Sequence record: NZ_CP071299.1
Length of the DNA stretch: 41,979 nt
Reading direction: 5' to 3' (one strand)
Source of the DNA: a plasmid
The position numbers were made by a program. Within the stretch, counting starts at the first letter, position 1, and each line of letters opens with the position of its first letter. Below, in pieces: positions 3,001 through 12,000 of this stretch.

Positions 3001-6000
3001 ATAGAAGGATTGTCTATTTTTCTTCTTCCAAAGATAATAGAGGACTTTGCTGTACTCTTGCACCCAACGATAAATCGTAGTATGACAAACATTTATTCCA
3101 CGATCATATAACAATTCCTGAACTTCACGATAGCTTAGATTGTAACGCAGGTAGTAACCAACAGCGACAATAATGACGTCTTTTTTGAATTGTTTGCCTT
3201 TAAAATGATTCATTACTCTGTCCTCTCTGTCTTTTTTCTCAATTTTACACTAAAATAGATTTTTTGGAAAACTTTGCAACAGAACCAGTGATACATATTT
3301 CAATAAAATGTGCCAAAGAATTAAAGATATGAATTATTCAGGATATGTGGTAAAATGTTTTAATCAAGTTTAGGAGGAATTAATTATGTAGTGTAATGAA
3401 TGTAACAGGGTTCAATTAAAAGAGGGAAGCGTATCATTAACCCTATAAACTACGTCTGCCCTCATTATTGGAGGTTGAAATGTGAATACATCCTATTCAC
3501 AATCGAATTTACGACACAACCAAATTTTAATTTGGCTTTGCATTTTATCTTTTTTTAGCGTATTAAATGAAATGGTTTTGAACGTCTCATTACCTGATAT
3601 TGCAAATTATTTTAATAAACCACCTGCGAGTACAAACTGGGTGAACACAGCCTTTATGTTAACCTTTTCCATTGGAACAGCTGTATATGGAAAGCTATCT
3701 GATCAATTAGGCATCAAAAGGTTACTCCTATTTGGAATTATAATAAATTGTTTCGGGTCGTTAATTGGGTTTGTTGGCCATTCTTTCTTTTCCTTACTTA
3801 TTATGGCTCGTTTTATTCAAGGGGCTGGTGCAGCTGCATTTCCAGCACTCGTAATGGTTGTAGTTGCGCGCTATATTCCAAAGGAAAATAGGGGTAAAGC
3901 ATTTGGTCTTATTGGATCGATAGTAGCCATGGGAGAAGGAGTCGGTCCAGCGATTGGTGGAATGATAGCCCATTATATTCATTGGTACTATCTTCTACTC
4001 ATTCCTATGATAACAATTATCACTGTTCCGTTTCTTATGAAATTATTAAAGAAAGAAGTAAGGATAAAAGGTCATTTTGATATCAAAGGAATTATACTAA
4101 TGTCTGTAGGCATTGTATTTTTTATGTTGTTTACAACATCATATAGCATTTCTTTTCTTATCGTTAGCGTGCTGTCATTCCTGATATTTGTAAAACATAT
4201 CAGGAAAGTAACAGATCCTTTTGTTGATCCCGGATTAGGGAAAAATATACCTTTTATGATTGGAGTTCTTTGTGGGGGAATTATATTTGGAACAGTAGCA
4301 GGGTTTGTCTCTATGGTTCCTTATATGATGAAAGATGTTCACCAGCTAAGTACTGCCGAAATCGGAAGTGTAATTATTTTCCCTGGAACAATGAGTGTCA
4401 TTATTTTCGGCTACATTGGTGGGATACTTGTTGATAGAAGAGGTCCTTTATACGTGTTAAACATCGGAGTTACATTTCTTTCTGTTAGCTTTTTAACTGC
4501 TTCCTTTCTTGTAGAAACAACATCATGGTTCATGACAATTATAATCGTATTTGTTTTAGGTGGGCTTTCGTTCACCAAAACAGTTATATCAACAATTGTT
4601 TCAAGTAGCTTGAAACAGCAGGAAGCTGGTGCTGGAATGAGTTTGCTTAACTTTACCAGCTTTTTATCAGAGGGAACAGGTATTGCAATTGTAGGTGGTT
4701 TATTATCCATACCCTTACTTGATCAAAGGTTGTTACCTATGGAAGTTGATCAGTCAACTTATCTGTATAGTAATTTGTTATTACTTTTTTCAGGAATCAT
4801 TGTCATTAGTTGGCTGGTTACCTTGAATGTATATAAACATTCTCAAAGGGATTTCTAAATCGTTAAGGGATCAACTTTGGGAGAGAGTTCAAAATTGATC
4901 CTTTTTTTATAACAGGAATTCAAATCTTTTTGTTCCATTAAAGGGCGCGATTGCTGAATAAAAGATACGAGAGACCTCTCTTGTATCTTTTTTATTTTGA
5001 GTGGTTTTGTCCGTTACACTAGAAAACCGAAAGACAATAAAAATTTTATTCTTGCTGAGTCTGGCTTTCGGTAAGCTAGACAAAACGGACAAAATAAAAA
5101 TTGGCAAGGGTTTAAAGGTGGAGATTTTTTGAGTGATCTTCTCAAAAAATACTACCTGTCCCTTGCTGATTTTTAAACGAGCACGAGAGCAAAACCCCCC
5201 TTTGCTGAGGTGGCAGAGGGCAGGTTTTTTTGTTTCTTTTTTCTCGTAAAAAAAAGAAAGGTCTTAAAGGTTTTATGGTTTTGGTCGGCACTGCCGACAG
5301 CCTCGCAGAGCACACACTTTATGAATATAAAGTATAGTGTGTTATACTTTACTTGGAAGTGGTTGCCGGAAAGAGCGAAAATGCCTCACATTTGTGCCAC
5401 CTAAAAAGGAGCGATTTACATATGAGTTATGCAGTTTGTAGAATGCAAAAAGTGAAATCAGCTGGACTAAAAGGCATGCAATTTCATAATCAAAGAGAGC
5501 GAAAAAGTAGAACGAATGATGATATTGACCATGAGCGAACACGTGAAAATTATGATTTGAAAAATGATAAAAATATTGATTACAACGAACGTGTCAAAGA
5601 AATTATTGAATCACAAAAAACAGGTACAAGAAAAACGAGGAAAGATGCTGTTCTTGTAAATGAGTTGCTAGTAACATCTGACCGAGATTTTTTTGAGCAA
5701 CTGGATCCAGGAGAACAAAAACGATTTTTTGAGGAAAGTTATAAATTATTTTCCGAACGATATGGCAAGCAAAATATTGCTTATGCAACAGTTGGTTCTG
5801 TTGCAAAGTTTTAAATAAAGAATAAAATCCCTTACGGTATCTATGATTTAAGCTGGGATTCCCAATAATACCTTGATTTCAGTACAGACCGAAAACCCGA
5901 AGAGAGTGCCTTCTTTTCGGGTTTTCTTATATAATCCTCGGATGGCTTCCATACCTTTAATCGTGGTAGAGGCAGTGCGTAAACTTCGATAGAATTTATT

Positions 6001-9000: not shown

Positions 9001-12000
9001 ACTTTCTTTACAAATGGACGCAGTGTCTGTTTAACAGAGTTAAAAGGTTATCAGGTTACTAACATTAAGTCTGCTTTCCAACCACGTCGTCCAAATAATA
9101 GAATAGACAAAGTAAGGCATATGTTTAATAAAATCAACTTACATTGATAGTGAACTAAAGAGAAATTTTTAAAATGAATATTGAGTTGTTAATTAGAACA
9201 GGAGGATATAGATATTGTAAATACTAGGTGGATACTGTGCCCTATATGTGGCAATAAGACCCGTTTAAAAATGAGGGAAGATACTGAATTAAAAAATTTC
9301 CCTCTATTTTGTCCTAAATGCAGACAAGAAATTTTAATTGAAATAACGAAGTTTAGAAGGTTCTGTTGCAAAGTTTTAAATAAAGAATAAAATCCCTTAC
9401 GGTATCTATGATTTAAGCTGGGATTCCCAATAATACCTTGATTTCAGTACAGACCGAAAACCCGAAGAGAGTGCCTTCTTTTCGGGTTTTCTTATATAAT
9501 CCTCGGATGGCTTCCATACCTTTAATCGTGGGTGAGGCAGTGCGTAAACTTCGATAGAATTTATTGCGTCTCTTTACTGGACGATGGTCTTGTTCAATCA
9601 AATTATTCAGGTATTTAATGGTACGATGTTCTGTCCCTTGATAAAATCCGTATTCTTTTAGTTTCTTAAAGGCACTAGCAATTGATGGTGCTTTATCTGT
9701 GACTACAACCTTCGGTTCATCAAACTGCTTCACTAACCGCTTAAGAAAAGCATAGGCTGCTTGTGTGTCCCGTTTTTTACGTAACCAAATATCCAAGGTT
9801 AAACCATCTGCATCGATGGCTCGATACAAATAATGCCATTTTCCTTTAATTTTGATGTACGTTTCATCCATTTTCCATGAATAAAAGGATTTTTTATTTT
9901 TCTTTTTCCAAATTTGATAGAGTAGTTTGCCATATTCTTGCACCCAACGATAAATCGTCGTATGAGAAACGTTAATGCCACGATCATATAAGATTTCTTG
10001 AACTTCACGATAGCTAAGGTTATAACGAAGATAGTAGCCCACGGCTACAATAATCACATCCTGCTGAAATTGCTTTCCTTTAAAATGATTCATCGTCATT
10101 CCTCCTGCTATCTTTTTCTATTATTCTACCTTATTTGATAGTAGATTTAAAACTTTGCAACAGAACCAGATTAATTACCAATAAGAAAAAGTCAAAAGCA
10201 AATAAATTAAAATCAAACTGGAAATTACTTCTAAAAAATCAAACAAATATTTCCATTTCAGAGTTCAAAACTTGGAGAAGTTTTCCTTCTCCAAAGTACC
10301 ATCTTTTAACGGAATCTATGGTGATTGATCGACTACTCTCATTTTCTTCTGAACTAAAAGAAGCTTATGACATTTTCCATTTATTAATGTATCACTTTAG
10401 AAACAAAGATGACCGTTCCTTTTTCGAACTATTGAAAAATCTACCTGATAGCTTGGATACACAATTTAGAGATAAAATAGAAAATCTGATTTCCTATGAA
10501 GAAGGTATTAGAAACGCTCTTAAATATAATTTTTCCAATGGAAAAATTGAAGCTAAGAACACTCATATAAAAACACTTAAAAGAGTTTCCTACGGATTCA
10601 ACTCATTTACAAATATGCGTATAAGAATTTTCTTGATAAACGGCCTTATTAAAATTAAATAACTAAAAAAGATGATAAATCTGAGAGTAATCTCAAGTTT
10701 ATCATCTTATATATCCGACTCATCAGTCCGATTTGACAAAGAGCCCAAACTCAAAAGGTCTTCACATAGCGATTATATCTAATAAAAATTCATTAATTTT
10801 TTTACATTTTCAACAACCAGAATGTATCATTAACACTTTTACATCCTTATTGCATAACTCAAAAATTACATAACTTCCAATTCTCTCATCAACTGTTCCC
10901 ATTCATTAAAATAATTACCCTGACACCTTTTAACATCATCAATTGATTTTTGTATTTCCGTCAGTACTATATAATCAGAAGAATTGTTTGGTTCAGAAAT
11001 AATTTTATTCAATCTTTCTAATTCTTCATCATATTGATTTATTAACACTTCAAGTTTTTCAATTCGTTTCTCCTTCTTAACCTTCTCCTTCTCAATGGAG
11101 TTACGATCGCCTTTTACTGTGTTATTTTTCTCTACTTTCTGCTCAACTTTAATGTTAATAAATGGCTTTTCAGAATTCATCCTTTTTTTCTCGTACTCAC
11201 CATAAGTGGATTGTACAAACTCTACACCATCCTTATCAAAAACAAGCAATCTGTCAGCAATCTTATTAGTAAAATATCTATCATGTGACACAAAAATAAT
11301 TGTACCTTGATAACTGCATAAGATATTCTCTAAATTCTCTTTTCCAATAATATCCATGTGGTTTGTCGGTTCATCTAAGATTAAAACATTAGTACGTTTA
11401 TATAATAATTTACATAATGTCAATCTAACCTTTTCTCCACCTGACAAAGAGGACACCGGTCTAAAAACATCATCTCCACTAAACTGAAATGAGCCAAGAG
11501 CAGTTCTGACCTCTGTGTCATTTAGCTCAGGGTATTCGCTTTGAAAAATTTCGAATAGTGTATCATCTCCACTGATTTGAGCAAGCTGTTGGTCAAAATA
11601 GCTAATTTCAACATTGTATCCGAATTTAAAATCTCCAGACAATGCTGCCACACCATCCATAAGTGTTTTAAGCAACGTGGATTTACCAATACCATTACTC
11701 CCAACAATTCCAAGCTTCTGTCCCCTTTCAAGGTTGAAATTAACCTTTGCAAGAGGAGTATCATAGCCTATCACAAGTTCTGAAGCACTTAATACTTGCC
11801 TTGAACTACTGATTCTCGGTTGAAATTTAGACATATAAGTTTTTGTATCGTATTGGTCTGGTGCATTTAATATTTGCATACGCTGTAATAATTTAATTTT
11901 AGATTGCACCATTTTAGCTTTCGTAGGTTTATAACGAAAACGTTCAATCAAGCGTGTAATCCTTTCAATTTCTATCTGTTGCAAGTCGTAATCTTTTTGC

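Follow-up and report, generated by a model that had tools for sequence, protein, structure and literature searches.

We found that the tet(S) ribosomal-protection gene of the plasmid in sequence record NZ_CP071299.1 is enclosed by two directly oriented copies of the insertion sequence (IS) IS1216, and we consider it highly probable that the whole constitutes an IS1216-bounded pseudo-compound transposon, a potential translocatable unit (TU) carrying tet(S), in a multiresistance island of a circular Lactococcus-type plasmid. The window, by which we mean the entire stretch of DNA analyzed, is 41,979 bp long. The structural properties of a pseudo-compound transposon are found here: the same IS occurs twice, in direct orientation, around a passenger of 2,756 bp (6603-9358) that is devoid of genes for replication, transposition or transfer, the Rep and ParA genes lying outside it at 31454-33563. 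From left to right, the unit comprises the following features:

5794-6602, minus strand: IS1216 copy A, 809 bp, with an intact transposase open reading frame (ORF) at 5848-6534 encoding 228 amino acids (aa)
6603..6915, plus strand: left cargo end, a spacer specific to tet(S) contexts (distant BLAST)
6741-6902, minus strand: ORF for a hypothetical protein of 53 aa, annotated as WP_032495052.1, hypothetical protein, in the plasmids pK214, pLG728-optrA and pSI01
6916..7206, plus strand: Tn916-type leader/attenuator of tet(S) (consensus scan, alignment and RNA fold)
7207..9147, plus strand: tet(S) ribosomal-protection gene, given as the longest ORF from ATG 7207
9235..9358, plus strand: 3′-truncated gene for a Cys-rich KTR protein, similar to orf6 of Tn916 (protein alignment with intact KTR genes)
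9359-10167, minus strand: IS1216 copy B, 809 bp, with an intact transposase ORF at 9413-10099 encoding 228 aa

The initial annotation had reported near-identical, direct IS1216 copies on the two sides of tet(S), and the repeat search, the ORFs and a base-by-base comparison bear this out to the base. Both copies end in a perfect 23-bp terminal inverted repeat (GGTTCTGTTGCAAAGTTTTAAAT; repeat search), and since both transposases are encoded on the minus strand, the copies are in direct orientation (ORF list and repeat search). Of their 809 positions, 8 differ (IS positions 174, 175, 289, 319, 321, 325, 328 and 331; 99.0% identity), altering two amino acids of the transposase, and as near-identical repeats of 809 bp the copies make a pairing that is far beyond chance. 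The copy A transposase matches the NCBIfam IS6-family profile NF033587 over profile positions 1-201 of 202 at 262.6 bits (cut-off 125 bits; E 2e-78), and the element itself is 100% identical to one annotated as ‘IS6-like element IS1216 family transposase’ in the Enterococcus faecium plasmid pBP5067_P2. Copy B is 99.0-99.6% identical to IS1216-family elements annotated in pBP5067_P2, pK214 and pSI01, with the second IS1216 of pK214 as its nearest relative (3 differences); it is separated by 4 differences from copy C, one of two further IS1216 copies of the plasmid (see below), the other of which, copy D, is identical to copy A. The features by which IS1216 is recognized, namely a length of ~808-809 bp, inverted repeats of ~18-24 bp, a DDE transposase of ~226-228 aa and a nucleotide identity of at least 95%, are present in both copies, which we assign by sequence to IS1216 of the IS6/IS26 family, clade II.

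Between the copies, ORFs, profiles and the KTR alignment recover what the initial annotation had listed, i.e., tet(S), its leader hairpin and a KTR/orf6 fragment cut at its 3′ end by IS1216, and the ORF list and profile search yield no further credible gene in the cargo. The first 313 bp of the cargo are confined to tet(S) records, and homology to tet(M) regions begins at ~6916 (distant BLAST). The leader that follows displays a promoter-like site at 6917-6945 (consensus scan) and, upstream of tet(S), a terminator-like hairpin at 7148-7185, in which a 17-bp stem is followed by a T-run; the RNA fold of the leader has a z of -3.3. The Rfam family RF02864, ‘Enterococcus sRNA 30’, overlaps the leader at 7003-7166 on the plus strand with 80 bits (E 2.6e-15), below its gathering score of 123, and this small RNA family is probably the leader transcript of Tn916-type tet genes in its terminated form. 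The true start of tet(S) is probably TTG 7222, which is preceded by the ribosome-binding site GGAGG and would give a product of 641 aa. Tet(S) matches the NCBIfam TetM/W/O/S family over its full length at 1269.4 bits (cut-off 1100) and scores 1215 bits with the Tet(M)-specific model, under the cut-off of 1420 for that model; its DNA is 100% identical to a region of pBP5067_P2 identified as tet(S), likewise at 100%, by AMRFinderPlus. The KTR gene retains 41 of 55 codons, its match to intact genes ending exactly at the copy B terminus, and in the translated fusion ORF its frame runs 10 codons into copy B, up to a stop at 9388-9390.

The region ~6916-9353 aligns with Tn916-type tet(M) regions at ~79% identity overall and at 88% across their annotated leader, where the attenuator hairpin is near-identical, and the KTR protein is 78% identical to its Tn916-type counterpart. 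These comparisons support a Tn916-like source of the cargo, as had been proposed from the KTR fragment and the leader. The order of leader/attenuator, resistance gene and orf6/KTR, together with the clear homology, is likewise common to the Tn916 family (Tn916 itself and Tn6000, which has tet(S)), and the cargo of pSI01 has been reported to be 99.93% identical to Tn6000 (Ciric et al. 2014, PMC4237122). Unlike the unit described here, members of that family carry integrase, excisionase, regulatory and conjugation genes, none of which is left in the unit or the plasmid; the whole plasmid also lacks the Tn916-like DNA that lies downstream in pK214 and pBP5067_P2 and the fragment of a transfer gene that lies upstream there. 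The alignments support the view that the cargo is likely a trimmed remnant of a Tn916-family tet region and not a member of the family.

As a kind, the IS1216-flanked tet(S) unit is already known, with its circular form shown experimentally in other bacteria, and ‘IS1216-tet(S) TU’ is already in use as a name (PMC5024762). The BLAST search of the cargo that had been proposed, against tet(S) plasmids such as pK214 and Tn916-type regions, was run and gave 99.9% identity to pK214, beside the ~79% for Tn916-type tet(M) regions. The closest precedent is pSI01 of Streptococcus infantis (NC_019365 / JX275965), which also has the arrangement IS1216-tet(S)-orf6-IS1216 with direct copies and a unit devoid of replication genes, and whose cargo matches 6665-9358 at 99.93% over 2,694 bp (leader, tet(S) and KTR/orf6). 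In pSI01, however, the left IS lies 62 bp nearer tet(S) and the right IS 314 bp further out, such that KTR is intact and the cargo measures 3,007 bp as against 2,756 bp here, and the host replicon and neighboring genes are unrelated to those of the window. The circle and the deletion product of pSI01 were detected by polymerase chain reaction (PCR), a Southern blot being negative (Ciric et al. 2014, PMC4237122), whereas excision of the present unit is a prediction. Direct IS1216 copies on both sides of tet(S), at 99.9% identity, are also featured by pK214 (Lactococcus lactis, NC_009751) and pLG728-optrA (Lactococcus garvieae, MW310588). The latter has the exact left junction in common with the window, as well as optrA and fexA, and pK214 has 437 bp more on the left, comprising a conjugal-transfer gene fragment; unlike the window, both have an intact KTR and further Tn916-like DNA before the right IS. 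In Streptococcus bovis, outward PCR revealed a 4.3-kb circle that is formed by an IS1216-flanked tet(S/M) and has one IS1216 copy (Barile et al. 2012, PMC3542815). That unit resembles the present one in its IS1216 direct repeats, its tet(S) promoter/leader and its downstream orf6, but it is a chromosomal tet(S)/tet(M) mosaic with a nonsense mutation in one transposase, whereas the present unit has an unmixed tet(S) and two intact transposase ORFs. The pseudo-compound transposons and TUs of IS26, such as Tn4352 (Harmer & Hall; PMC6807381, PMC7986276), share the family, the architecture, the lack of target duplications and the overlapping IS-bounded arrays; IS1216 differs from IS26 in belonging to another clade (II) and in its Gram-positive hosts, and its mechanistic data are limited to cointegrate assays in E. 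coli.

On its outer sides the unit abuts two interrupted genes:

5422..5793, plus strand: left outer flank, 5′ fragment of a MobV relaxase gene (MobV′; NCBIfam MobV), downstream of tet(L) and cut by copy A
10168..10619, plus strand: right outer flank, ISL3-family transposase fragment (ISL3′; NCBIfam ISL3), with which the optrA-fexA-erm(B) segment starts

Separate 8-bp target duplications around each IS, which the initial annotation had named as the mark of independent insertions, were searched for and none was found: no such duplication, direct or inverted, occurs at any IS copy, around the unit or between any pair of copies, and the outer flanks of the unit, CAACAGTT and AGATTAAT, have none. 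The left flanks of copies C and D agree at 7 of 8 positions, but this was rejected as a duplication, since the agreement has no extension and is treated as chance. The missing duplications therefore exclude simple insertions and a composite-transposon hop. Their absence is usual after cointegrate, deletion or targeted events of the IS26 family (PMC7986276), and although duplications are lacking, this is no argument against membership in IS1216. The general IS-gene-IS look could still recall a classical composite transposon inserted in one piece via its outer IS ends, but such an origin is scarcely credible: beyond the unduplicated flanks, the left MobV′ breakpoint is widespread without tet(S), with 5793/5794 indexed in 33 blocks of a public assembly collection and the IS in either orientation, and IS6/IS26 elements form cointegrates with no two-end excision, directly flanked structures being unable to transpose as a unit (PMC6807381).

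The left inner junction (6602/6603) is found exactly in 19 PLSDB records, of which 17 are from E. faecium, one from Listeria innocua and one is L. garvieae pLG728-optrA. The 3,566 bp that span copy A and the cargo (5793-9358) match pBP5067_P2, in which KTR continues intact, at 100% identity, and pLG728-optrA with 2 mismatches. The right inner junction (9358/9359) has 0 matches in PLSDB, 185,579 representative genomes and JGI metagenome contigs. An exact-sequence look-up of the ORF that fuses the truncated KTR (KTR′) into copy B returned one NCBI draft contig, from assembly GCA_022427765.1, which is 100% identical to 6534-9435 with both inner junctions included. The same assembly has a 23-kb contig identical to 25454-35937 (10.5 kb at 100%), which then continues into an intact relaxase gene where the window has copy D; because of this shared identity we take the assembly to hold a sister plasmid and not an independent context. 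A further draft contig (L013) corresponds to window 469-5900, MobV′/copy A junction included, and no record of the copy B/ISL3′ junction or its fusion ORF was found elsewhere. An assembly artefact, in which the IS1216 repeats were wrongly resolved and tet(S) is not truly flanked, might be suspected from the difficulty of assembling seven IS6-family copies and from the want of independent support for the copy B/ISL3′ junction. We nevertheless judge it very unlikely, given that independent draft contigs repeat both inner junctions and the MobV′/copy A junction and that an intact IS is formed exactly where the two ends of the window meet. What is novel is only the exact right boundary, hence the unit size of 3,565 bp, and it is confined to one plasmid lineage.

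The IS1216 endpoints around tet(S) are nested across plasmids. The left endpoint lies 437 bp further out in pK214 and many Lactococcus/Listeria plasmids, at 6603 in the window and E. faecium, and at 6665 in pSI01; the right endpoint lies at 9299 in CP191280.1, at 9358 in the window, 314 bp further out in pSI01 and eight PLSDB records, and beyond that in pLG728-optrA and pK214. In CP191280.1, the window and pSI01, the right endpoint has the same IS end facing tet(S), as do all of the left endpoints that were checked. Nested endpoints with the same IS end inward are the pattern expected of repeated adjacent deletions or other terminus-precise events, and they suggest that the flanking IS1216 copies trimmed the passenger stepwise. 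We infer from the comparative data that the unit was built neither by two simple insertions nor by a composite-transposon hop. Instead, the left IS and the cargo would be shared by descent with the E. faecium, L. innocua and L. garvieae plasmids, and the right junction would represent a separate transposase-mediated event at an exact IS terminus, most likely an adjacent deletion or a cointegrate event that involved the IS1216 also bordering the optrA segment. Three routes to the right junction fit the data, namely insertion of a TU beside a resident IS, a copy-in cointegrate by copy B and an adjacent deletion by copy B.

A different junction in the same gene is seen in the plasmid of Lactococcus sp. 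LG606, in which KTR 9347-9355 is fused via a 9-nt microhomology (CGAAGTTTA) to the interior of an inverted IS1216 (LG606 7990-8001). This junction lies 3 bp from the terminus-precise copy B junction, and the IS1216 junction of CP191280.1 lies 59 bp upstream of the latter, at 9299. The LG606 plasmid was rejected as a direct ancestor, as it has this different, microhomology-based KTR junction and keeps 210 bp that are missing here (see below). Three right endpoints thus fall within 60 bp inside KTR (9299, 9355 and 9358), out of at least four on the right and three on the left overall. It is conceivable, although doubtful, that the flanking IS1216 copies act repeatedly, that the 3,565-bp unit of this lineage is a newly minimised tet(S) TU which, on a lactococcal plasmid associated with food or the gut, has only just been joined to optrA, fexA, erm(B) and tet(L), and that KTR is a preferred target or recombination site of IS1216.

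The remainder of the plasmid is rich in IS6-family elements, with four IS1216 copies and three others. The inventory of the initial annotation holds for copies A and B, but it had missed copies C and D, two ISS1N-like copies and an ISTeha2-like IS. The latter is split by the ends of the window: 41715-41979 and 1-545 join into an IS of 810 bp with an uninterrupted 228-aa transposase, which is ISTeha2-like and contiguous in other plasmids. Identity to IS1216 is 95% over its first 265 bp but only ~73% over the remainder; a reading of this element as an IS1216 hybrid was rejected in favor of an ISTeha2-like member of the IS6 family. Because its ends close into an intact IS that is contiguous in other plasmids, the window in all probability represents an entire circular plasmid, 41,979 bp in size. 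The other features outside the unit are as follows:

2479-3286: ISS1N-like copy
3482-4858: tet(L) (NCBIfam Tet(L))
10168-18692: segment with optrA, a truncated araC, an NAD(P)H oxidoreductase gene, fexA and erm(B), between copy B and the inverted copy C (NCBIfam OptrA, FexA and Erm(B))
18693..19501, plus strand: IS1216 copy C, inverted relative to copies A and B, which together with copy B brackets the optrA segment
28450-29243: degenerate ISS1N-like copy of 794 bp, with its transposase frame split into short ORFs
35938..36746, minus strand: IS1216 copy D, direct with respect to copy A and identical to it, which interrupts a relaxase gene

With Rep3/RepB encoded at 31454-32608, plus ParA, the plasmid is classed as a Lactococcus-type replicon with Rep3/RepB replication. 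It has a sugar block (aldose-epimerase/PTS/pgmB/GH65) that is 99.4-99.7% identical to a block in the plasmid of LG606, and over its full extent the plasmid has no counterpart in PLSDB. The two ISS1N-like copies (28450-29243 and 2479-3286) are 95.7% identical to each other with 11 gap openings. To the left of the unit, tet(L) and MobV′ (3482-5793) form the remnant of a small mobilisable plasmid. To the right, the segment 10168-18692 is a mosaic, of which every PLSDB record covers less than 80%; its pieces are at least 99% identical to L. garvieae pLG728-optrA and to Enterococcus optrA plasmids, and the breakpoints lie at IS1216 ends. The 452-bp ISL3 fragment at its start (10168-10619) adjoins the right end of IS1216 here and the left end in pLG728-optrA (3653-4104), a circular permutation that would be expected if a unit of IS1216 and ISL3′ had once been circular or doubly flanked. 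At 19502, next to copy C, 210 bp that are present in the LG606 plasmid (8188-8397) are absent from the start of the sugar block, which is consistent with an IS-adjacent deletion. At 35715-36746, copy D splits the relaxase gene and leaves no more than its 3′ 223 bp; because the sister plasmid, 100% identical up to 35937, keeps an intact relaxase and MobC there, the present plasmid has probably lost this mobilisation module.

Based on the literature on IS26 and IS1216 and on pSI01, we predict that recombination of copy A with copy B would yield two products: a circle of 3,565 bp, unable to replicate and made up of the cargo and one IS1216, in which a single IS copy joins KTR′ (...GTTTAGAA) to CTTTTAATG..., and a plasmid of 38,414 bp with a single IS1216 joining MobV′ to ISL3′. 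According to reviews of the IS26 family, its pseudo-compound transposons depend on homologous recombination for movement as a unit (PMC6807381, PMC7986276), and a RecA-dependent crossover between A and B appears feasible because the two share identical tracts of 173, 113 and 478 bp. The circle, or the plasmid as a whole, could then fuse with an IS1216-bearing replicon by the targeted conservative or the copy-in cointegrate route. As summarized in one review, there are two ways in which IS1216 forms cointegrates, namely copy-in and a targeted conservative reaction that is independent of RecA and strongly favors IS-bearing targets (PMC7986276, citing PMC6952201).

Several points weigh against a unit that moves in this form. 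Transposase-dependent excision of a TU by IS26 has been shown only for a special mutant transposon (PMC7986276), and the circles of pSI01, seen by PCR, were too rare for a Southern blot (PMC4237122). A single assembled sequence cannot display a circle, a deletion product or a tandem amplification. The predicted excision product, MobV′ joined by IS1216 to ISL3′, has no single-piece match in PLSDB, and the reciprocal donor junction that an attack of copy A on KTR in the same molecule would have produced, in which an IS1216 end abuts GTTTAGAA and the KTR remainder, is absent from it; 24-nt partial matches to the donor junction in optrA plasmids were rejected as chance similarity of AT-rich sequence. 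The unit with both of its junctions was not found beside unrelated flanks in PLSDB, representative genomes or metagenomes, only in this plasmid lineage, and there is no evidence of past movement as this 3,565-bp unit. Further, copies A, B and D are all direct, which leads to competing recombination outcomes, with the identical pair A/D being a better substrate than A/B. The ‘ready-made mobile cassette’ of the initial annotation accordingly stands in its structure, with direct IS1216 copies and verified cargo, but its wording on mobility was overstated, given the PCR-only circle of pSI01 and the reviews of the family.

An alternative is that the juxtaposition is incidental, i.e., that successive IS1216 cointegrate, deletion and recombination events built the tet(L)-tet(S)-optrA-fexA-erm(B) island, that the 3,565-bp unit has never moved and is not preferred, and that larger or other IS1216-bounded segments or the whole plasmid move. 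We give this a little less than an even chance. The differing histories of the inner junctions (the left in 19 PLSDB records, the right in none), the sequence type of copy B, which differs from that of A, the position of copy B as a border of the optrA segment that ends at the inverted copy C, the abundance of IS6-family copies on the plasmid, the identity and direct orientation of A and D and the restriction of the complete unit to one plasmid lineage all speak for it. It addresses, however, the history of the unit and not its capability: direct IS1216 copies around the same cargo gave a circle in pSI01 (PMC4237122), as did the S. bovis unit (PMC3542815), and the identical A/B tracts of 173 to 478 bp are ample for recombination. 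The structural reading as an IS1216-bounded pseudo-compound transposon with the potential to act as a TU is the one that we favor.

IS1216-flanked tet(S) units are a documented route of tet(S) among Lactococcus, Listeria, Enterococcus and Streptococcus plasmids. The present case implies no new mechanism or family and carries little weight as biology and modest weight for surveillance; its value lies mainly in documenting tet(S) beside tet(L) and optrA-fexA-erm(B) on an IS6-dense plasmid of Lactococcus type. Each resistance module on this plasmid is bounded by IS6-family elements, such that recombination or cointegrate formation by IS1216 could rearrange the determinants of resistance to tetracyclines, phenicols, oxazolidinones and macrolides or transfer them together.

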